From: an uncultured Candidatus Saccharibacteria bacterium
Lineage (GTDB): Bacteria; Patescibacteriota; Minisyncoccia; Phycocordibacterales; UBA10002
Direction of reading: 5' to 3'
DNA length: 57,608 nucleotides
Assembly: GCA_964373775.1 (NCBI GenBank)
Contig: CAYJWA010000001.1
Location: 1-57,608 of the forward strand
The position numbers and the translations under genes are program-made. Of this stretch, positions 3,371 through 53,682 are shown piece by piece. The notes beneath the pieces were generated by a model. That model was not told where the DNA came from. It saw nothing but the letters and a program-made list of their open reading frames with translations, and ran no database searches. Numbering within the stretch: position 1 is the first letter of the stretch; each line of letters begins with the position of its first letter.

Positions 3371-3982
3371 ATGTATCTACCCTATATAGAACAATATCTC
3401 GCAGAGGCCAAGCAGATTATCGACGCGCTTGATCGCCCATCTATTGAACGGATGATAGAAGTCCTGAAGCAGGTTCGCGACGAACGTGGCAGGCTTTTCA
3501 TATTGGGCGTTGGCGGCGGCGCGGGGCACGCTAGTCACGCGGTGAATGATTTCAGGAAGATTGCGGGCGTAGAGGCATACACGCCTATGGATAACATCTC
3601 GGAATTCTCGGCGCGGGTAAATGACGACGGCTGGGAGAATGTACTAGCCGACTGGCTCAAAGGAAGCTTTCTATCCTCTAAAGACGCCATACTGGTATTT
3701 TCGGTGGGAGGAGGAAATGCTGAAAAGAATATCAGCGTCAATATTGTCGCGGGCGTGAAGTACGCGAAAAAAGTCGGAGCAAAAGTGCTTGGCGTGGTTG
3801 GTCGCGATGGAGGATACACAAAAAGCGTGGCGGACGCGTGCGTTTTGGTGCCGAATGTAAATCCGGAGACCGTCACCCCGCATACCGAGAGTTTTCAGGC
3901 GGTCATTTGGCACCTCGTTGTGAGCCACCCACTGTTCTTGAAGCAGAAAGGAAAGTGGGAATCGGTAGAGAAGACGAAATAA
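3371..3982 (+). CDS. SIS-domain sugar-phosphate isomerase (phosphoheptose isomerase-like)
   Basis: LFILGVGGGAGHASHAVNDFRK and VFSVGGGN are SIS-fold features. The ATG at 3371 is preferred over the GTG at 3356, which lies inside the repeat. Confidence 0.65.
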   Translation: MYLPYIEQYLAEAKQIIDALDRPSIERMIEVLKQVRDERGRLFILGVGGGAGHASHAVNDFRKIAGVEAYTPMDNISEFSARVNDDGWENVLADWLKGSFLSSKDAILVFSVGGGNAEKNISVNIVAGVKYAKKVGAKVLGVVGRDGGYTKSVADACVLVPNVNPETVTPHTESFQAVIWHLVVSHPLFLKQKGKWESVEKTK

Positions 3983-4790: not shown

Positions 4791-4955
4791 AGCACAAAAC
4801 ACAATACTCAAAAATCCAAACAAACATTTCAAAGCACAGTATCCAAAAGACCAAACAGAGAGCGGAGTAGTCGTAGACTGATGAGTTTGTGTTTTGAGAG
4901 TTTGCCGTTTTGTTTGGGTTCTGTGCGGTCTGTGTTTTGGTAAGTTTCCTTTTTT
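4791..4955. repeat. AT-rich imperfect inverted-repeat intergenic element (copy C)
   Basis: The left arm is rich in caaaaca/ccaaaca words. The right arm is rich in the complementary tgttttg/tgtttgg words (gagtttgtgttttgag, gttttgtttgg, ctgtgttttgg). Confidence 0.6.
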
Positions 4956-5897
4956 ATGGTAATACACACTAAGAAAGTCTTGGTCACCGGAGGCGCCGGA
5001 TTTATAGGTTCGAATGTCGTACGGTATCTGTGTGATAACGGATACTGCGTGTTGGTGATTGATGATCTCTCTTCAGGTTTTCGCCGGCTGGTAGACAAAC
5101 GGGCGAGATTCTTCAAAGGTTCTATTGCCAACCAATCGCTTCTTTTGTGGATACTTCCCGGCATCACCGCTGTTTTTCATCTGGCAGCCACCTCAACCGT
5201 TACCTATTCAGTAAGTAACCCTCGGTTATACTTTGAGAATAATTTCATGAACGGAATACAGCTTCTTGAAGCCATGAGAAAGGCCGGCGTAAAAAAAATG
5301 GTGTATGCGTCCAGCGCCGCTTCATATAACGGTCTAAAGTGCACCTCCATTGCCGAAGATGACGCCGTAGGCCCGCTTACCCCCTACGGCGCCTCCAAGC
5401 TCGCGTTTGAGTGCGCCATGAGCGCGTACTGGCACTCCTTTAAGATAGAAGGAATCGCTTTGCGTTTTTTTAATGTCTACGGACCGAATGATGAGCAACC
5501 CAATAATTCGCGGGCTATCCCGATGTGGCTTGAAGCGGCGCTCTCGGGGGAAAAAGTCCCCTATCATTGGAAAGGAAAGCAGAAGCGCGATTATATCTTT
5601 GTTGAAGATGTGGCGCGCGCGATGGTGCTTGCCGCCGAAAAAGCCCGCGGTTTCAATGTGTATAATGTGGGAAGCGGGAAAGGGATATGGATGATAGATA
5701 TTTTGAAAAAAATAGAAGACATTCTCGGAGAAAAGCTCATTTTACAGGATATGGGTTCGCGACCGGGGGATCCGAAGTATGCCATTGCCAATATCAAGAA
5801 GATTCAGAAAGGACTTGGTTGGGAGCCGCGTATCGGTTTAGATGAAGGCTTGCGACGGACTATTGCCTATTTCAAGAAGCGATTTAAAAAGACATGA
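4956..5897 (+). CDS. NAD-dependent sugar-nucleotide epimerase/dehydratase (GalE-like SDR)
   Basis: VLVTGGAGFIGSN and YGASKLAFE (YxxxK) are the SDR signatures. Confidence 0.7.
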   Translation: MVIHTKKVLVTGGAGFIGSNVVRYLCDNGYCVLVIDDLSSGFRRLVDKRARFFKGSIANQSLLLWILPGITAVFHLAATSTVTYSVSNPRLYFENNFMNGIQLLEAMRKAGVKKMVYASSAASYNGLKCTSIAEDDAVGPLTPYGASKLAFECAMSAYWHSFKIEGIALRFFNVYGPNDEQPNNSRAIPMWLEAALSGEKVPYHWKGKQKRDYIFVEDVARAMVLAAEKARGFNVYNVGSGKGIWMIDILKKIEDILGEKLILQDMGSRPGDPKYAIANIKKIQKGLGWEPRIGLDEGLRRTIAYFKKRFKKT

Positions 5898-47217: not shown

Positions 47218-47856
47218 ATGAAATCCATCACTATCGTTGACTACGGCGTCGGCAATCTGCAGAGTTTAAAGAAGGCGTTTGCGCATGTTGGCGCGGACGC
47301 GCGGGTCTCTGAAGATGCGGAGGAGATACGAAATGCTCATGCGGTTGTTCTTCCCGGGGTCGGTTCTTTTGAGGCCGGCATGCGCGGACTCCGGCTCCGC
47401 GGGTTGATTGAAGCGGTAAAAGAGTTTGCGCGAAGCGGCAAGTCTCTCCTCGGCATCTGTCTTGGCGCCCAGTTGCTTCTTGACCGTGGGCATGAGTTCG
47501 GAGTGCATGAGGGGTTAGCCGTCATGGAGGGAGAAGTAGTTCGGTTCCCCCCTCTTTCCGGTAACGAGAAGATCCCGCAGGTGGGTTGGAATGCGGTACG
47601 GCAACCAGAGGGGGTATCCTGGAAGGGAACGATTTTTGATTCATTCGCGAATACAGAACCGGATGTGTACTTCGTGCATTCCTATATACTGAAACCGGAA
47701 AAGAACGAGCATATTCTCGGCGCGACTGTCTACGGCGGTTTCAAGTTTGCTTCTGCCATCCGACGGGGACGCATCTTCGGGACCCAGTTTCATCCGGAGA
47801 AAAGCGGCACGGCGGGATTGGAAATAATCAAGAATTTTGTTACGCTCGTTTCATGA
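47218..47856 (+). CDS. HisH-like glutamine amidotransferase subunit paralog (WbuY type)
   Basis: ITIVDYGVGNLQS, LPGVGSF, GICLGAQLL (catalytic Cys) and FHPEKS. Confidence 0.75.
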   Translation: MKSITIVDYGVGNLQSLKKAFAHVGADARVSEDAEEIRNAHAVVLPGVGSFEAGMRGLRLRGLIEAVKEFARSGKSLLGICLGAQLLLDRGHEFGVHEGLAVMEGEVVRFPPLSGNEKIPQVGWNAVRQPEGVSWKGTIFDSFANTEPDVYFVHSYILKPEKNEHILGATVYGGFKFASAIRRGRIFGTQFHPEKSGTAGLEIIKNFVTLVS

Positions 47857-49040
47857 AAGTAAAAAAATTAGACAAACAATTGGAGACACAACCGAAAAAA
47901 GTGCGATTTTGCGCGCGGTGCGTGGTCTCCAACCAACGGCCGCGCATCACCTTTGATGCGCATGGCGTCTGCAGCGCGTGCCGCTACACCTGGAAGAAAC
48001 ATCATGAAATTGACTGGAAGAAACGCGAGAGAGAATTGCAGGAACTCTGCAATCGACACCGTTCCACAGACGGCTCTTTCGATGTCGTGGTGCCCGCAAG
48101 CGGCGGTAAGGATAGCGGCTATACTGCTCATATCCTAAAAACAAAATACGGCATGCATCCGCTCTGCGTGACATGGGCGCCGTTTGAATACACGGACATT
48201 GGCTGGAAGAATTTTCAGAATTTCGTGAAGTCCGGATTTACGGTGCTCAATTGTTTTCCCAGCGGAGTACTGCATCGGAAATTGGCGCGCGTGGCGTTTG
48301 AGCTTAAGGGAGATGCCTGGGAGCCGTTTGCATTCGGGCAGAAGGCGTATGCGTTTCATATTGCGCTTACATTCGGCATCCCGCTCATCTTCTACGGAGA
48401 GAACGGAGAAGTGGAGTACGGCGGCTCTTTGAAAAATGCGGATAAGCCGTTTGAGTCGGTCGCGGACTGGGAGCATCTGTATTTTAAGGGTGCTGGCGTG
48501 GACGCGCTTCTTGGGGCGGGCCGTAAGCTGGGTATCTTTACCAAAGAGGAGATGCGAGATTCGTCATTTAATCTGTACCGCCCGCCGAAACTCCGCGACA
48601 TTGAAAAACTCGGTGCCGAGATGCACTGGCTCTCGTATTACCGCAAGTGGGTGCCGCAGGATAATTTTTATTACGCGCAGAAATACACCGGGTTTACCGC
48701 GAATGAAGAGGGTCGTTCAGAAGGCACCTACTCAAAATATGCAAGTTTGGACGACAAACAGGACGGATTTCATTTTTATCTCGCCTTCATCAAGTTCGGC
48801 ATCGGGCGGGCGACTTCTGACGCGGCGCATGAGATTCGCGATGGGCACATTACGCGGGAGGAGGGTGTGACGCTCGTGCGGCGCTACGATGGAGAATTCC
48901 CCAAAAAGCATTTTCAATGGTTTCTTGACTACCTCGGTATTGACGAAAAACATTTCTGGGAAGTCGTGGATTCATGGCGGCCGCCGCATGTGTGGAAAAA
49001 GGTGAACGGAGAGTGGAAAGTAAGAAAGCAGGTGGAATAG
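47853..49040 (+). CDS. N-acetyl-sugar amidotransferase (PP-loop ATPase, WbpG/WbuX/PseA-like)
   Basis: CARCVVSNQRPRITFDAHGVCSAC forms the zinc ribbon. VVVPASGGKDSGY is the SGGKDS PP-loop. ATGA overlap with the upstream gene. Confidence 0.75.
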   Translation: MKVKKLDKQLETQPKKVRFCARCVVSNQRPRITFDAHGVCSACRYTWKKHHEIDWKKRERELQELCNRHRSTDGSFDVVVPASGGKDSGYTAHILKTKYGMHPLCVTWAPFEYTDIGWKNFQNFVKSGFTVLNCFPSGVLHRKLARVAFELKGDAWEPFAFGQKAYAFHIALTFGIPLIFYGENGEVEYGGSLKNADKPFESVADWEHLYFKGAGVDALLGAGRKLGIFTKEEMRDSSFNLYRPPKLRDIEKLGAEMHWLSYYRKWVPQDNFYYAQKYTGFTANEEGRSEGTYSKYASLDDKQDGFHFYLAFIKFGIGRATSDAAHEIRDGHITREEGVTLVRRYDGEFPKKHFQWFLDYLGIDEKHFWEVVDSWRPPHVWKKVNGEWKVRKQVE

Positions 49041-49116: not shown

Positions 49117-50346
49117 ATGAGTAAGAATACTGACGATATAAAAAAGGTGGAAAGCGAGACGCTTGCAACCTTTCAGGAAGAGATTCCTTCGCAATACTTT
49201 TCGCATAAAAGCGAAGCAGAGTATCGGGATTATGTAAGGAACGCCGAGTTTGTTTATCGGGAGTTGTTCAAATTTCCTCCTCAGATGTTCCAAGGCGCGG
49301 AACTGATAGATTTCGGAGCGGGAACCGGAGAAAACACTGTGTACATGGCAAACTGGGGCGCTACATGCACGCTTGTGGAAATGAACTCCAAGGCACAGAG
49401 TATCTCAAAGGAAGTGTTTCAAAAATACGCGCAGAATCCTGACGGCCATACATTTATCTGTGCATCAATTTTTGACTATGCGCCGATCAATGACAAGAAA
49501 TATGACCTTGTTCACTGTAGGGGCGTTCTTTCACATACTGCAGCTAATGAAGTGGCTTTCCAAAAAATCGCGAACTTGGTTACACCGGGCGGGTATCTCA
49601 TTTTTGGAGACCCCAATAAGGCGGGGGGATTTCAGAATATGTTGCAGCGCTTTGCCGTCTATCATTTTGCTTCAACGCCCGATGAAATGGTGGCAGTGTG
49701 CGAACTTCTCTTTAAGGAAGACATTGACCGCAGCGAGAAATTTATTCCTCGCACCCGCCGCGCCATTATTTTTGACCGATGGGTGATTCAATCCCAAGAT
49801 GACCCTTCGGTTGCGGAAGTTATTGGTTGGATGGGTACGAGCGGCTTACGGCTGTATTCGTCATATCCCTCATTTATGCTGCCGTTAGTAAGTGATTCGG
49901 TTCATCATACGCCGAAGTTTGATTCAACATTGGTAGCTAACCACGGTGTGCTCGCTGAACTGGCGTGGATGTTACGGACCGAATCGGATAGCGAAGCGTT
50001 TCCTCAGTTAGTGAGCAAACTAGATCCGCTTTCGGCCGCCTTTGCAAATTTTACCTCATATGTAGCGAATCTAAATAAAAATACCAAGATTGATGCCGGC
50101 CGCTTCAAAGAATTATCGCGCGAGTTAGCACAATCTTCTGATTCGCTCAATTTTCTTCAGCTGCTTCGCGATAAATTGTTGCAGATTCTTATAGAAGCGG
50201 ACGAATTTGTCAGTTTGGTCCAGGAATCTGATTTGAAGAAACTTCGTAAGTTTATTGAAAACACTAAAGTTCTTTTTAAAAGCGCGTGCGGCGTACGCCA
50301 TGTTGACTTCATTGCTTATAAACCTATAGAAACCAATGCGAATTAA
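49117..50346 (+). CDS. class I SAM methyltransferase with a C-terminal extension of about 230 aa and unknown function
   Basis: LIDFGAGTGENTVYMA and YDLVHCRGVLSH. The ATG at 49117 is preferred over the GTG at 49048. Confidence 0.55.
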   Translation: MSKNTDDIKKVESETLATFQEEIPSQYFSHKSEAEYRDYVRNAEFVYRELFKFPPQMFQGAELIDFGAGTGENTVYMANWGATCTLVEMNSKAQSISKEVFQKYAQNPDGHTFICASIFDYAPINDKKYDLVHCRGVLSHTAANEVAFQKIANLVTPGGYLIFGDPNKAGGFQNMLQRFAVYHFASTPDEMVAVCELLFKEDIDRSEKFIPRTRRAIIFDRWVIQSQDDPSVAEVIGWMGTSGLRLYSSYPSFMLPLVSDSVHHTPKFDSTLVANHGVLAELAWMLRTESDSEAFPQLVSKLDPLSAAFANFTSYVANLNKNTKIDAGRFKELSRELAQSSDSLNFLQLLRDKLLQILIEADEFVSLVQESDLKKLRKFIENTKVLFKSACGVRHVDFIAYKPIETNAN

Positions 50347-51466
50347 TAGTCACAATGAATGGGATACATTGCGAGAAATTATTGTAGGCAGGGGAGACGG
50401 CCATGCTCATCTAGTTTTTCCGCATGGGCCGGTATCGGAAGAATTGCTTCATAGAGCGACTGCTTTGGCAAAAAAAGCTTTTCCGCAGTGGCTTATAGAT
50501 GAAATCAATGAAGATCTAGAAGGACTCTGCCATGTTTTAAAATCTTTCGGCGTTAAAGTGTATCGGCCGGATCTTTCTCACAACAATAAATTTTTTGCAA
50601 CCCCGTATTTTAGCGCCGTTGGCGACCATGTATATAACATGAGAGATTTACATTTGGTTGCTGGCAACACGGTAGTAGAGTCTCCTTCCCAGGAACAGCA
50701 TCGTTATTTTGAGGCGATGGGTCTGTATCCCATTTGGTATGAATATCTTAAAGAGGGTTTCCGCTGGATAGTTGGTCCAAAACCAAGAATTCCAGGAGAT
50801 CATATGATTGTATATACTGCTGACGGAAAGGATGGGTATGACGATGGGCAAAAGTATATCAAATTAAAAGAAGAAGAAATCTTATTTGAAGCAGCCAACA
50901 CGGTACGGTTAGGGAGAGACCTTTTGTATTTGGTGTCCAGATCCGGTAATTATCTTGGCGCGCAATGGCTGCAAACCGTTTTAGGCGATGAATACCGGGT
51001 TCATACCACTGATAAGATCTATCGTTCCAGCCACATTGATTCTACCGCTTTAGCCTTAAGACCAGGGGTGATTCTTTTGAATGGCACCCGGGTACATGAA
51101 AAGAATTGCCCGGAGATTTTGAAAAAGTGGGAAAAACTTTATTTTACCGATATTGTTCCCACTCCGGAAAGAACCCTAGATTTTCACGAAAAAGTCAGGA
51201 AGAAGGTGCATCAGAAACTTTTAGAAATGGGGGTAGACTCCGGTTTGGAATCGGTGGCTTCTCCATGGATTGGTATGAATGTGCTCTCAATTGATCCAAA
51301 AACGATTGTGGTGGATAAGATTCAAATTCCACTCATCAAATTCTTTGAGAAAAAAGGTTTTACCGCTGTGCCTATTAGTTTTAGACATTCTTATTACATG
51401 GGTGGAATCCATTGCAGCACCTTAGACACGGTTCGGGATAGCACATTAGAAAGTTATTGCGATTAA
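50336..51466 (+). CDS. amidinotransferase (glycine amidinotransferase / StrB1-like, GME superfamily)
   Basis: The N-terminal INSHNEWDTLREIIVG resembles the NEWDPL.EVIVG signature. The C-terminal GGIHCSTLD carries the catalytic Cys. Confidence 0.65.
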   Translation: MRINSHNEWDTLREIIVGRGDGHAHLVFPHGPVSEELLHRATALAKKAFPQWLIDEINEDLEGLCHVLKSFGVKVYRPDLSHNNKFFATPYFSAVGDHVYNMRDLHLVAGNTVVESPSQEQHRYFEAMGLYPIWYEYLKEGFRWIVGPKPRIPGDHMIVYTADGKDGYDDGQKYIKLKEEEILFEAANTVRLGRDLLYLVSRSGNYLGAQWLQTVLGDEYRVHTTDKIYRSSHIDSTALALRPGVILLNGTRVHEKNCPEILKKWEKLYFTDIVPTPERTLDFHEKVRKKVHQKLLEMGVDSGLESVASPWIGMNVLSIDPKTIVVDKIQIPLIKFFEKKGFTAVPISFRHSYYMGGIHCSTLDTVRDSTLESYCD

Positions 51467-51468
51467 AA

Positions 51469-52602
51469 ATGAATAAAGTTTTAGCAGTGATCCACGCGCG
51501 TAGCGGTTCAAAACGGATACCGAACAAGAACATTCGGGATTTTTGCGGCAAGCCCCTGATTGCGTATACGATTGAACAGGCGTTACGGTGCGCGTTTGTT
51601 GAGCGAGTGATTGTAGATACGGATTCGCCGGCTATTGCCGCTGTCGCAAAAAAGCATGGCGCAGAAGTTCCGTTTCTGCGCCCAAAACAGCTTGCCGCCG
51701 ACACCTCGCAGGTTGCAGATGTGCTCTTCTGCCTTCTCTCGCGGCTGAAAGAGGAAGAAGGGTATGAACCGACGCATGTGCTCATTTTGCAGACGACATC
51801 GCCGCTTCGCGAACAAAGAGATATAGACGCCTGCTTCGCGCTTATGGAACAGACCGATGCGACCACCGTGCTTACGGTGGCGCCGACGCATCCGAGGTTA
51901 TATCATCTCGACGCGGAAAAGAACCTCGTGCTCGGAAACAAGTTTGTTGTGGACTCCACCAATGTACAGGAATGGAAACCGGCCTACCTCCTCAACGGGT
52001 GTTTCGTGTATCTGGTCAAGACCGAGGCGCTGCTGCGCGAAAAGCGCATCATCACGAAACGCACCAAAGCGGTCATTTGCGACAAATGGCGCTCAGTTGA
52101 TTTGGATTCGCCGGAGGACTGGGTCGTGGCGGAGCTTTTGTATACGCATAGGGAGGAAATAAAAAAGAGTTTGGGACGCATTAAGAAACAGAAACAGACA
52201 GTACCGTCTGCTTCGTCCCCGTATAAAGATTTCGACGGATGGAATGAAGTGAAGAAGCACACGCATGCAGAACCGCCGCGTCTATATACCGTGCGCGAGA
52301 TTTGGTGGTGCCGGCTGGGCGAAAATGTCGGAACCGAACAGAACGGAACAGGGGATGTATTTGCTCGACCTTGCATTATTCTCCGCCCGTTCGGTCCAGG
52401 GGCCTGTCTTGTAGTGCCCCTTACTACCTCTCCGCGGGAGCACCCATTGCGTGTTCCTGTTGGGCTAGTTAACGGAAAGCAGGCTCGCGCGAATCTCTCC
52501 CAGATGAGAGTCGTTGATACACGGCGATTCACCCTTAAAATCGGTTTCCTTTCCCGGAATGCGTTTGATAAACTGAAAAAAGCCGCCGGAGATTTATTCT
52601 GA
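51469..52602 (+). CDS. neuA: CMP-nonulosonic acid synthetase (NeuA) fused to a C-terminal MazF/PemK-like domain
   Basis: Residues 1 to about 225 (LAVIHARSGSKRIPNKN, LQTTSPLR) match a cytidylyltransferase. Residues from about 258 to the end (EIWWCRLGENVGTEQNGTGDVFARPCIILRPF..CLVVPLTTS...ANLSQMRVVDTRR) align by eye with E. coli MazF. The reading frame is uninterrupted. Confidence 0.7.
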   Translation: MNKVLAVIHARSGSKRIPNKNIRDFCGKPLIAYTIEQALRCAFVERVIVDTDSPAIAAVAKKHGAEVPFLRPKQLAADTSQVADVLFCLLSRLKEEEGYEPTHVLILQTTSPLREQRDIDACFALMEQTDATTVLTVAPTHPRLYHLDAEKNLVLGNKFVVDSTNVQEWKPAYLLNGCFVYLVKTEALLREKRIITKRTKAVICDKWRSVDLDSPEDWVVAELLYTHREEIKKSLGRIKKQKQTVPSASSPYKDFDGWNEVKKHTHAEPPRLYTVREIWWCRLGENVGTEQNGTGDVFARPCIILRPFGPGACLVVPLTTSPREHPLRVPVGLVNGKQARANLSQMRVVDTRRFTLKIGFLSRNAFDKLKKAAGDLF

Positions 52603-52710
52603 CGACTCTTTTGCACTTTTTCCCCTCCGTAGGAGGGGCGAGGCCGAAGCCAACTGTGTTTCGATGCTAGCATATATCTTTAAGAAAAGCAAGCAAACTA
52701 ATGTAACCCT

Positions 52711-53682
52711 ATGAAGTTCCTCATTGCTGGACTCGGTTCAATGGGCAAGCGGAGAATCCGTAATCTGTTCGCCAATGGCGAGAAAAACATTGTGGGTTTT
52801 GACATTCGTCAAGACAGAAACAAAGAGGTACAGCAGAAATACGGCATTCACATTCTGAATCGTCTCGGAGAGATTTCACCGAAGGATTTTGACGCGCTTA
52901 TCATTTCCACTTCGCCCGACGCGCACGGTAATTATATCCGCTATGCCCTGAAGCATAAGAAGCACTTTTTTGTGGAGCATCCGACAAGCGACGATGGATA
53001 CAAAGAAATTCTCAAGAACAAAGACGCAACCGTTAAAGCTCCCTCCTGCACATTTTTATTCAATCCAGCCGTCAAGCTCATGAAAAAGATTTTGGGAGAA
53101 GGAAAGATAGGGAAGGTGCTGGCGTTCCAGTATCACATGGGGCAATATCTTCCGGACTGGCATCCGTGGGAGGACTACCGTACGGTATATTTCTCAAAGA
53201 AAGAAACAGGCGCTTGCCGCGAGATGTTCTGCTTTGAACTTATCTGGCTGAATTATCTTATGGGTTCGCGCGTGAGAGAAGTCAAGGGTTCAATCACCAA
53301 ACTCTCTGCTCTTGATATGGATGCCGACGATACGATTACGGCTGCGGTTGCGTATGAGAACAGCGTGCGCGGCACGCTTCTTATTGATGTCATTGCGCGA
53401 AAGCCGTTCCGCACGCTCCGCGTTCTCGGCTCCGAGGGCGTGCTTGAGTGGGAGCGATTTGACTACGCGATAAAGATATTCAACGCCGCGACCAAAGAAA
53501 CCGAAGTTATCCCCGTGCCGAAGGGGAATCCGGAAAAAGGGTATGTCAACGAGGAGGAGATGTACATTGAGGAAATCAAGGCATTTTTGGATGCTATCTA
53601 CGGTCGCTCGCCTTACCCATACTCGTTTGAGGAGAACCTCCTGAATCTGCGGGTTTTTGAGCGGGTTGAACGGGAGAGTTGA
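52711..53682 (+). CDS. Gfo/Idh/MocA-family oxidoreductase
   Basis: MKFLIAGLGSMGKRRIRN and HFFVEHP. Confidence 0.65.
   Translation: MKFLIAGLGSMGKRRIRNLFANGEKNIVGFDIRQDRNKEVQQKYGIHILNRLGEISPKDFDALIISTSPDAHGNYIRYALKHKKHFFVEHPTSDDGYKEILKNKDATVKAPSCTFLFNPAVKLMKKILGEGKIGKVLAFQYHMGQYLPDWHPWEDYRTVYFSKKETGACREMFCFELIWLNYLMGSRVREVKGSITKLSALDMDADDTITAAVAYENSVRGTLLIDVIARKPFRTLRVLGSEGVLEWERFDYAIKIFNAATKETEVIPVPKGNPEKGYVNEEEMYIEEIKAFLDAIYGRSPYPYSFEENLLNLRVFERVERES

Follow-up and report, generated by a model that had tools for sequence, protein, structure and literature searches.

What is the RNase fold of a MazF toxin doing at the end of an enzyme that activates sugars? The question is raised by a stretch of 57,608 nucleotides (hereafter the window: positions 1 to 57,608 of contig CAYJWA010000001.1, assembly GCA_964373775.1) from an uncultured Candidatus Saccharibacteria bacterium, in which one open reading frame (ORF) on the plus strand, 51469..52602, encodes a CMP-nonulosonate synthetase of the NeuA type and, behind it, a MazF/PemK-like domain. 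We propose, with a probability of roughly 0.7, that a mobile module that combines a toxin gene with a small RNA (sRNA) was inserted behind neuA, the sRNA being the probable antitoxin. Taken by itself, the claim that this sRNA is the antitoxin of the MazF-like toxin appears rather likely to us, and the NeuA-MazF architecture is best seen as a by-product of the mobile module. No paper combining NeuA and MazF terms was found in the literature searched, where the architecture is thus undescribed, in agreement with a first-pass annotation of the window that knew of no such NeuA.

Architecture of the fusion protein

The ORF (ATG at 51469, TGA at 52600-52602; 377 aa and a stop codon, according to the ORF list, Pfam and the orthologues) runs through both halves as a single uninterrupted frame, and, as the first-pass annotation had read it, neither a stop codon nor an internal ATG lies at the junction. 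Residues 6-200 match CTP_transf_3 with 96 bits, and residues 276-373 match PemK_toxin (PF02452) with 47.8 bits against a cut-off of 23.1, covering positions 3-105 of the 109 in the profile (Pfam), while the equivalog model of E. coli MazF stays below threshold (12.7-15.2 bits against a cut-off of 120; NCBIfam). In a separate AlphaFold model of aa 246-377 (mean predicted local distance difference test score, pLDDT, of 77; 80-91 in the core) all of the top 50 PDB matches are MazF, with probability 1.00 and TM scores of 0.6-0.73 (Foldseek). The assignment of the two halves to a cytidylyltransferase and a MazF/PemK fold is therefore upheld by profile and structure, including the PF02452 match expected in the C-terminal region, and it survived the test that had been set for it, namely that a MazF fold might fail to appear.

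Pfam, NCBIfam, Foldseek and the alignment place the N-terminal half (aa 1-241; 51469..52191, plus strand) among the NeuA/LegF/PseF-like CMP-nonulosonate synthetases. Its domain is confident in the AlphaFold model, with CMP-Kdn, CMP-Neu5Ac and CMP-pseudaminic acid synthetases as the best PDB matches (9t4z, 6ifd, 9ftc, 1eyr; E 1e-19 to 1e-21; Foldseek). The nearest NCBIfam model is that of the pseudaminic-acid cytidylyltransferase PseF (TIGR03584; 166.8 bits, under the cut-off of 205.7), and close relatives are named legionaminic-acid or N-acylneuraminate synthetases in the source databases; judged by these profiles, the half would belong at the level of CMP-nonulosonate synthetase rather than with PseF in particular.

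Stand-alone relatives of NeuA (237-239 aa) correspond over their entire length to residues 1-241. Because NeuA-only relatives stop in the alignment at the equivalent of K240/Q241, the linker is confined to aa 242-252 (KQTVPSASSPY; 52192..52224, plus strand; comparison with the fusion orthologues), i.e. to ~11 aa instead of the ~35 aa proposed initially, the remainder of which belongs to the C-terminal helix of NeuA and to an N-terminal extension of the toxin. The linker probably derives from a 5' leader that the toxin gene had on insertion and that has since come to be translated. The remaining 125 residues (aa 253-377; 52225..52599, plus strand) form a complete MazF/PemK-like module according to Pfam, the fold and the stand-alone homologues. 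A family-specific extension of ~25 aa, KDFDGWNEVKK... (aa 253 to ~277), precedes the Pfam core, so that the C-terminal MazF domain of ~105 aa described at first was correct as to the fold and too short, the module being a whole copy of a stand-alone protein.

NeuA proteins with additional C-terminal domains are known from E. coli K1 and group B Streptococcus, where the CMP-Neu5Ac synthetase carries a C-terminal esterase. The protein in the window resembles them in being a CMP-sialic-acid-type synthetase with an extra domain at the same end, but by profile and fold that domain is a MazF-like RNase and not an esterase of the SGNH/PAF-AH type, and it is a recognizable complete mobile gene rather than an activity related to the pathway.

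Age and origin of the fusion

A search spanning 5.8 billion proteins returned six with the NeuA-MazF architecture (66-100% identity), all from Patescibacteria loci of the nonulosonic acid (NulO) type; the other close NeuA relatives (237-250 aa) are without the C-terminal part. The comparison of fused and split forms in related genomes, advised in the first-pass annotation, thus yielded six fusions, NeuA-only relatives and stand-alone toxins. The fusions, 66-73% identical, derive from one metagenome-assembled genome at NCBI, from ENA Hainich contigs and from four Logan runs; the five found in addition to that in the window come from different samples and assemblers, and their gene order is the same wherever context exists. 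The NCBI annotation of one of them, P0006, names only a PemK/MazF toxin, from Patescibacteria.

As the contigs were assembled from metagenomes, two genes could in principle have been joined by an indel or by the loss of a stop codon from the sequence; however, the six independently assembled orthologues, ~30% divergent, are all open across the junction, and their linker lengths differ by multiples of three. In pairwise comparisons among the fusions the ratio of nonsynonymous to synonymous substitutions (dN/dS) is 0.06-0.18 in both halves wherever it is computable, and the proportion of synonymous differences (pS) reaches ~0.5-0.88, with synonymous sites at or near saturation and most pairs saturated. 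Around the junction, over 11-23 residues, identity among the fusions is no more than 17-52%, compared to ~70% in both domains. The divergence of the orthologues, the saturation of synonymous sites and the purifying selection exclude a recent stop-loss and leave an assembly artefact with a practically negligible probability. The fusion is real, old and kept, with both of its halves under purifying selection.

The genomic context indicates where the additional DNA came to lie. In NeuA-only relatives neuA either overlaps the gfo gene by 4 nt or ends one base before its start codon, whereas in the fusion clade ~530 bp of extra sequence, consisting of a short leader, the toxin ORF, the sRNA and the sRNA promoter, separate the old end of neuA from gfo. 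In the window the right edge of the inserted module is marked by the Gfo/Idh/MocA oxidoreductase gene at 52711..53682 (plus strand; Pfam and comparison with loci L075-L077). One orthologue, L001, retains the toxin's own ATG (..P-M-A-KDFD) at the place where the protein in the window has Tyr; the internal toxin start codon is gone in five of the six. Because L001 keeps the toxin start and the NeuA-only relatives lack the extra DNA, we favor the following course of events. A self-contained module (a 125-aa MazF-family gene and a convergent ~84-nt sRNA with its own promoter) would have been inserted exactly at the neuA-gfo junction, and the subsequent loss of the neuA stop codon would have extended translation through ~11 former leader codons into the toxin, generating the NeuA-MazF fusion that has since been kept. 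Of the recent stop-loss fusion that the first-pass annotation offered as one of three explanations, the read-through is thereby retained (the ATG in L001, neuA abutting gfo), and the recency is not.

A target-site duplication at the neuA/gfo insertion was also considered and dropped, as the similarity on the right side, TTAAGAAA, is the -35 region of the sRNA.

Relatives of the MazF-like module

The toxin part is 70-78% identical over aa 253-377 to 127-aa stand-alone proteins of Patescibacteria, which begin with M-x-KDFDxWNxxKK, matching the fusion from aa 253 onward. Such homologues are common in Kaiser-, Vogel-, Zambryski-, Yanofsky-, Taylor-, Lloyd-, Giovannoni- and Brennerbacteria, among others; 65 stand-alone relatives were found in Patescibacteria genomes, and an exhaustive HMMER search at E < 1e-10 delineates a family of 703 clusters at 50% identity, mostly of 125-135 aa. 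In an alignment of 75 sequences R55 and P56 (the RP motif) are invariant, T74 and T75 are conserved in at least 90%, and the LTTS, EQ and SQxR..D motifs show little or no variation. The catalytic residues, R29/T52 in E. coli MazF and R25/T48 in B. subtilis EndoA, have their counterparts in Arg300 of the RP motif (codon 52366..52368) and Thr319 of the LTTS motif (codon 52423..52425; both on the plus strand, from the family alignment). The VRP motif corresponds to 'GVRPVLV' of EndoA, and the first T of LTTS aligns with 'AAITAQ'; the HMM alignment to EndoA is shifted by a 4-residue insertion before RP, and the correspondence of the Arg is based on the shared VRP motif. As the catalytic motifs are kept in the family, and RP, LTTS, EQ and SQxR..D are present in all six fusions, a degenerate fold repurposed for a non-catalytic role, the second of the explanations offered earlier, is unlikely. 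With these motifs kept, the C-terminal half would rather be an active endoribonuclease and a toxin.

The canonical type II systems MazEF, PemIK and Kid-Kis (E. coli MazF, EndoA, MazF-mt1) share with the module the PF02452 profile, the fold and the Arg-Pro and Thr motifs. The module family differs from them in the extra N-terminal segment of ~25 aa and the 4-residue insertion before RP, and sequence similarity to the MazF proteins of solved structure is marginal (E 1e-4 with the family profile). There is no MazE/PemI-type gene next to the ORF in the window or in any of the 63 stand-alone loci, and the candidate partner is an RNA. The window contains no gene for a protein antitoxin (MazE, PemI, AbrB or similar), which sets it apart from type II and confirms the earlier remark that no MazE-like ORF precedes the toxin domain. 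No recurring small partner ORF was found either upstream or downstream of the 63 stand-alone homologues, the neighbors of which are unrelated (RNA polymerase, AlaRS, GAPDH, IF3, surface proteins and others), and no conserved 5' leader or cassette boundary was found upstream of the toxin start.

Stand-alone toxin genes often start no more than a few bases from the end of an upstream gene on the same strand, and the lack of an upstream partner gene would make them easily welded to whatever gene precedes them. Elsewhere the module is indeed fused, always whole, to an HD domain, RpiB, chorismate mutase, YdjC, a zinc ribbon, a recurrent domain of ~72-84 aa and MazG, the last being the sole case in which the partner is C-terminal to the toxin. 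This variety of partners disfavors a regulatory invention specific to NeuA, and the link with NeuA is probably incidental rather than regulatory.

Several features of the family are recorded here in their own right. Two N-terminal additions recur, namely a domain of ~72-84 aa (MSANNYI.IEE...YGIRFSL; P0242, L031, L039, L113, L127, L154) and a CxxC...CxxC zinc-ribbon-like domain of ~65 aa (P0138, L033); neither has a Pfam match, and either could regulate the toxin in cis. In many stand-alone loci (L006, L014, L018, L020, L021, L024, L036, L044, L058, L059, L066 and others) a TATAAT-like box lies 8-15 nt before the toxin ATG, which would give the mRNA little or no leader, and a Shine-Dalgarno sequence is not evident. 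Residues 25-71 of the toxin domain are matched 27 separate times in a protein of 4132 aa (P0310; HMMER); these matches may reflect repeats derived from a section of the MazF barrel, or may be spurious and due to low complexity. Finally, a 229-aa ORF at 51984-52673 on the minus strand is antisense to the whole MazF part of the window and is probably a by-product of composition, not a gene; long antisense ORFs of this kind may explain why crude longest-ORF-first calling missed the toxin ORF in ~12 of the 63 loci.

A predicted convergent small RNA

The statement that the toxin domain has no antitoxin holds for proteins, but it overlooked a convergent candidate RNA antitoxin. At the 3' end of the fusion ORF and on the minus strand, a covariance model of the family matches positions 52559-52664 with 78 bits (E 3e-21), and covariance model, fold and covariation together predict an sRNA of ~84 nt from ~52658 to ~52575. 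In the 63 stand-alone loci, as in the window and in one fusion orthologue, the DNA behind the stop codon contains a near-invariant element. On the minus strand this element comprises a -35 box, which is TTGACT or TTGACA in 50 of 75 copies, a spacer of 16-17 nt, lengthened to 18 nt in 4 copies, a -10 box (TATACT, TATCAT or TATAAT) and, ~7 nt further on, ACAGUUGGC-UUCG-GCCUCA-CCCCC-GCAA-GGGGG-AGAA..., followed by a long hairpin and a run of U. A sigma-70-like promoter stands at a fixed distance from the sRNA in 60 of the 75 loci.

In the window, where all of these features are likewise on the minus strand, the -35 box TTGCTT (52687..52692) and, after 17 nt, the -10 box TAGCAT (52664..52669) were read by eye and chosen by their position in the family, as the best automatic promoter match consists of different, shifted hexamers (TTTGCT/TATGCT); the fusion orthologues L001 and L072 have TTGCYT-N17-TAGCAT in common with them. 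The invariant 5' ACAGUU precedes hairpin 1 (GGC-UUCG-GCC, 52642..52651; covariation and loop), which is followed by hairpin 2 (CCCCUCC-UAC-GGAGGGG, 52622..52638, for a family consensus of CCCCC-GCAA-GGGGG; covariation and loop) and by hairpin 3, an intrinsic terminator with a stem and U6 (52576..52612; covariation and fold). The final codons of the ORF, the stop codon at 52600-52602 and 10 nt beyond it supply the stem of the terminator; the sRNA is convergent with the fusion ORF and overlaps its last 28 nt. A generic scan for promoters and terminators called no sRNA signals in the window, its criteria being stricter than a weak promoter and a mismatched stem would satisfy.

The structure is borne out by covariation. 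In an unfitted MAFFT alignment RNAalifold finds compensatory changes in 16 of 20 pairs; in the model-fitted alignment of 75 copies 97.2% of the cells pair and 19 of 23 pairs show double changes. None of 500 column shuffles reached the observed covariation, and sliding the partner by 1-3 columns reduced the paired fraction to 44-64%. The middle pair of hairpin 1 changes from G-C to C-G in 6 copies, with a UUCG loop in 73 of 75; all 4 pairs of hairpin 2 are compensatory, with a GNRA loop in 60 of 75; and 14 of the 15 pairs of hairpin 3 show compensatory changes. The strand is equally clear, with 104 G-U against 24 A-C cells on the minus strand and UUCG and GNRA loops only when the element is read in this direction. 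The fold of the minus strand in the window has an energy of -35 kcal/mol (z -3.9, matched by 0 of 200 shuffles), compared to -23.5 kcal/mol (z -0.4) for the plus strand. Rfam has no family for the sRNA, either in a relaxed search around the locus or at gathering thresholds over the whole window, and ARAGORN reported no tRNA or tmRNA. Structure, strand and promoter, together with the co-occurrence with the toxin gene described below, were all computed in this work.

Two observations on the sRNA gene stand somewhat apart. A 9-mer resembling a DnaA box (TTATCCACA, at most 1 mismatch, either orientation) lies 5-18 nt upstream of the -35 box in 22 of the 75 copies (L008, L009, L011, L012, L015, L017, L022, L026, L027, L033, L037, L038, L046, L050, L058, L066, L069 and others), for an estimated chance rate below 0.01 per locus; it is absent from the window. 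The 9-mer could place the sRNA under the control of DnaA, or it could mark an edge of the module. Moreover, long forms of the toxin, of 146-148 aa (P0122, P0123, P0128, P0138 and others; L007, L011, L017, L022), result from read-through into the sRNA gene after loss of the stop codon, with tails such as ..LPLAGARPKPTVQ and ..SDSLPLAGARPKPTVQ, in which gene callers have read the non-coding sRNA as protein.

Association of the sRNA with the toxin gene

Covariance model R1 finds the sRNA on the minus strand behind all 63 of the 63 stand-alone genes and in the five fusion loci that have downstream sequence (partial in one, at a contig end). In the 620 kb scanned it occurs nowhere else except beside diverged toxin paralogues and in one orphan copy, and it is not found in the NeuA-only, uninserted loci. 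The converse holds as well: a scan of metagenomes seeded only on 21 nt of the sRNA 5' end gave 77 evaluable sites, 69 of which have a convergent MazF-like ORF, most of these ending 47-57 nt from the motif and 56 being full-length. A scan of viral contigs for the 5' motif gave 0 matches.

No intact toxin gene of the close clade was encountered without the sRNA; at the divergent tandem paralogues in L008 and L010 the matches to R1 are weak or absent. These tandem paralogues carry sRNAs of their own, with up to four paralogous modules in L008, and the more diverged the toxin copy, the more diverged its sRNA, R1 scores falling from ~100 to 16-60 bits and, for one paralogue in L008, to none. It looks as if sRNA and toxin co-diverge in the tandem arrays. 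In two loci, L069 (~229-443) and L070 (~4955-5123), the toxin is a pseudogene, frameshifted by an internal deletion that takes out its catalytic core, and the adjoining sRNA (84-94 bits) is intact. Orphan sRNAs without a toxin ORF occur at L048 (4820-4924, minus strand), with promoter and three hairpins, and at 8 of the 77 metagenome sites (among L081-L160). Toxin decay with retention of the sRNA, together with the orphan copies, is the pattern typical of toxin-antitoxin loci, and the retained sRNAs beside core-deleted genes hint indirectly at RNase activity and toxicity of the intact toxin.

Tandem arrays of 2-4 paralogous MazF-like genes were observed in L008 (four, at 28-402, 623-997, 1218-1598 and 3439-3807), L010, L036, L043 and L051.

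A plasmid counterpart in Campylobacterota

Homologues with the same N-terminal extension were found by tblastn on plasmids of Campylobacter, Helicobacter and Nitratiruptor. One of them is pVir0047 on plasmid pVir of C. jejuni 81-176 (N-terminus FDEWNEVKK; 36% identity over 86% of the query), which is annotated as a type II PemK/MazF toxin. The intergenic region between pVir0047 and pVir0048 encodes the sRNA CJpv3 (minus strand, 31119 to 31043), a transcript of 77 nt confirmed by Northern blot (PMC3656092, Dugar et al.), and differential RNA sequencing assigns it a transcription start site (TSS) with a step height of 16164, against 28 for the pVir0047 mRNA (Tables S5 and S12 of the same paper). 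From the record coordinates, CJpv3 converges on pVir0047 and ends 5 nt past its stop codon. By eye, plasmids of Nitratiruptor and Helicobacter suis show the same layout of promoter and hairpins. Passages in PMC7826846 and PMC10470494, both citing Shen et al. 2016, report that pVir carries a type I system whose RNA antitoxin is an antisense sRNA, CjrA; pVir0047 and CJpv3 probably are this CjrA/CjpT system.

The likeness to the module in the window extends to the protein subfamily, including the F-D-x-W-N-x-x-K-K extension, to the absence of an annotated protein antitoxin, to an sRNA transcribed from its own promoter directly downstream toward the toxin gene, and to a G+C-rich CCCCG...CGGGG hairpin beside the stop codon. 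On the other hand, the RNAs have no detectable sequence similarity, the sRNA of Patescibacteria terminates inside the ORF whereas CJpv3 terminates just outside it, and the pVir gene stands alone on a conjugative plasmid whereas that in the window is chromosomal and fused to an enzyme.

Mode of action and alternative explanations

According to the scenario of an inserted toxin/sRNA module, the NeuA half would activate a nonulosonic sugar as usual, and the MazF half, with its catalytic Arg and Thr kept, would still be a sequence-specific RNase. The antisense sRNA, transcribed toward the ORF and ending inside its last codons, would restrain this RNase. It may do so by base-pairing to the mRNA's 3' end, following the logic of type I systems, to which CjrA of pVir has been assigned, and it may also bind the toxin protein directly, following that of type III.

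An antisense RNA encoded in cis and overlapping the toxin mRNA, as in type I, is predicted here by computation, but instead of the small hydrophobic membrane peptide that is typical, if not universal, of type I, the toxin is a 125-aa soluble MazF-fold domain. In the convergent systems par (RNA I/RNA II) of E. faecalis and txpA/RatA and bsrG/SR4 of B. subtilis the toxins are small hydrophobic peptides, and the convergent RNAs share a terminator or overlap at the 3' end. The module in the window resembles them in its convergent antitoxin RNA candidate and in an overlap limited to the toxin mRNA's 3' end and terminator; it differs in that its toxin has the fold of an RNase and in that the non-overlapping part of its sRNA is unusually conserved. 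With the type III systems ToxIN, CptIN and TenpIN, whose toxins are endoribonucleases of a fold related to Kid/MazF, it shares the combination of an RNA antitoxin candidate with an endoribonuclease toxin, but its sRNA is single-copy and encoded on the opposite strand, and its toxin is a true member of PF02452.

The sRNA might also act mainly on the protein. According to this alternative, which we consider possible but hold at clearly less than even odds, the sRNA would neutralize the toxin in a type III-like manner, by direct binding as a pseudo-substrate or inhibitor, and the fusion would be incidental here too. In favor of such binding counts the sRNA's 5' half (ACAGUUGGCUUCGGCCUC...), which is not part of the ORF and yet is nearly invariant across loci whose proteins are 46-78% identical; antisense pairing alone does not demand such invariance. 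The orphan copy keeps its three hairpins with compensatory changes and overlaps no toxin gene; this and the nearly invariant 5' half would argue for a sequence-specific partner, for which the toxin is the simplest candidate. The diverged sRNAs of the diverged paralogues fit as well, as does the conserved single-stranded ACA with which the sRNA begins, since MazF enzymes recognize short single-stranded motifs such as ACA. However, no tandem repeats of the ToxI type were found upstream of the toxin (only two trivial micro-repeats in 50800-53200), an sRNA gene that is convergent with the ORF and overlaps it has the layout of type I, and the antisense sRNA antitoxin of pVir is classed as type I where PMC10470494 mentions it. 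A functional coupling of the two halves is improbable in our judgment. The CMP-sugar synthetase would then control the RNase allosterically or stoichiometrically and tie growth arrest or phage defense to the NulO state of the surface, as in the first of the explanations offered earlier. The age of the fusion, the selection on both halves, the loss of the toxin start in five of six orthologues, where the toxin can only be made fused, and the persistence of the fusion in the NulO cluster beside gfo in all loci with enough context are what one would expect of such a coupling. It is disfavored by a toxin family that is overwhelmingly stand-alone, in unrelated contexts, and otherwise fused to enzymes without a common theme, by the shortness and poor conservation of the linker, and by the retention of the module's own sRNA regulator; moreover, the AlphaFold model of the whole fusion (pLDDT 40-54 over aa 245-284) contains no confident interdomain interface or arrangement and no confident position of the toxin N-terminal extension, and PADLOC matched no defense-system model. 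Slightly less probable still is the explanation that the downstream element is only a bidirectional terminator, an insulator or a stability element of the 3' untranslated region, and the toxin domain an inert passenger. Hairpin 3 does have a T-rich tail on the plus strand also, and the weak sRNA promoter of the fusion clade would agree with this explanation, but the strand-specific signals (G-U versus A-C, UUCG and GNRA loops, fold energies) all favor the minus strand, the promoter keeps its distance in most loci, decayed toxin genes keep the sRNA, and the toxin has intact catalytic motifs and a dN/dS of ~0.1. The counterpart in C. jejuni, in addition, is an abundant, discrete RNA with its own TSS (PMC3656092).

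Several points weigh against the scenario of an inserted module restrained by its sRNA. The sRNA of Patescibacteria is predicted from sequence alone, with inferred ends, a fact that also favors the terminator explanation, and in the fusion clade its promoter is weak (TTGCTT/TAGCAT, 7 of 12 matches). Purely antisense action leaves the near-invariance of the 5' half, outside the coding region, unexplained. R1 does not match the sRNAs of Campylobacterota, so that the homology of the RNAs is argued from architecture, and we only infer that CjrA is CJpv3 and CjpT is pVir0047. L001 and L073 are 0.67 identical in the NeuA half and 0.88 in the MazF half, an incongruence that does not seem to fit simple vertical descent from one event; it suggests that the halves lack one common history and that module replacement or gene conversion has occurred. 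Finally, the long persistence of the fusion and the five lost internal starts leave room for a selected advantage of the fused form.

Neighboring genes

In the window the fusion belongs to a NulO cluster with NeuB, an enzyme of the UDP-GlcNAc 2-epimerase type, the Gfo/Idh/MocA oxidoreductase, a polysaccharide deacetylase, a methyltransferase and a His_biosynth/GATase pair (Pfam). For two conserved genes of this cluster, at 47853-49040 (395 aa, with an SGGKDS PP-loop-like motif) and 50336-51466 (376 aa), Pfam gave nothing at E <= 1e-5; related loci have the second of them, or in its place a gene of 394 aa, at most two genes upstream of neuA. L001 (1-17122) lacks the rest of the NulO cluster; the neighbors of its 394-aa gene, fusion and gfo are DNA methyltransferases, ResIII helicases, an NYN-domain gene and an M23 peptidase, a setting that resembles a defense island.

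Conclusions

It is tempting to combine the two modes of action with a selected fusion, in a joint reading in which the toxins of Patescibacteria and Campylobacterota form a widespread and distinct RNA-controlled class, the sRNA serves both as 3' antisense and as protein ligand, and the weld to NeuA has been selected; we regard this as unlikely, albeit not to the degree of the functional coupling. If it were true, a module lacking an upstream partner would have been welded repeatedly to host enzymes, the weld would tie the dosage of the toxin to expression of the surface-sugar operon, and the operon or genome region would be self-stabilizing or phage-responsive.

For the family as a whole, our results mean that the label 'type II PemK/MazF' is wrong for ~700 clusters (at 50% identity) in Patescibacteria, whose gene is accompanied by a conserved sRNA. 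This sRNA is a strongly supported new RNA family without an Rfam match, and its covariance model can be used to annotate it elsewhere. It provides a testable candidate for an RNA antitoxin of a true MazF-family enzyme, and its architecture links a little-noticed RNA-antitoxin system of Campylobacter plasmids with a major uncultured lineage. The consequence for the biology of surface sugars is probably small. With respect to enzyme-toxin fusions in general, the case advises caution against reading them as regulatory inventions, as the one described here is best explained by the landing site of a module.

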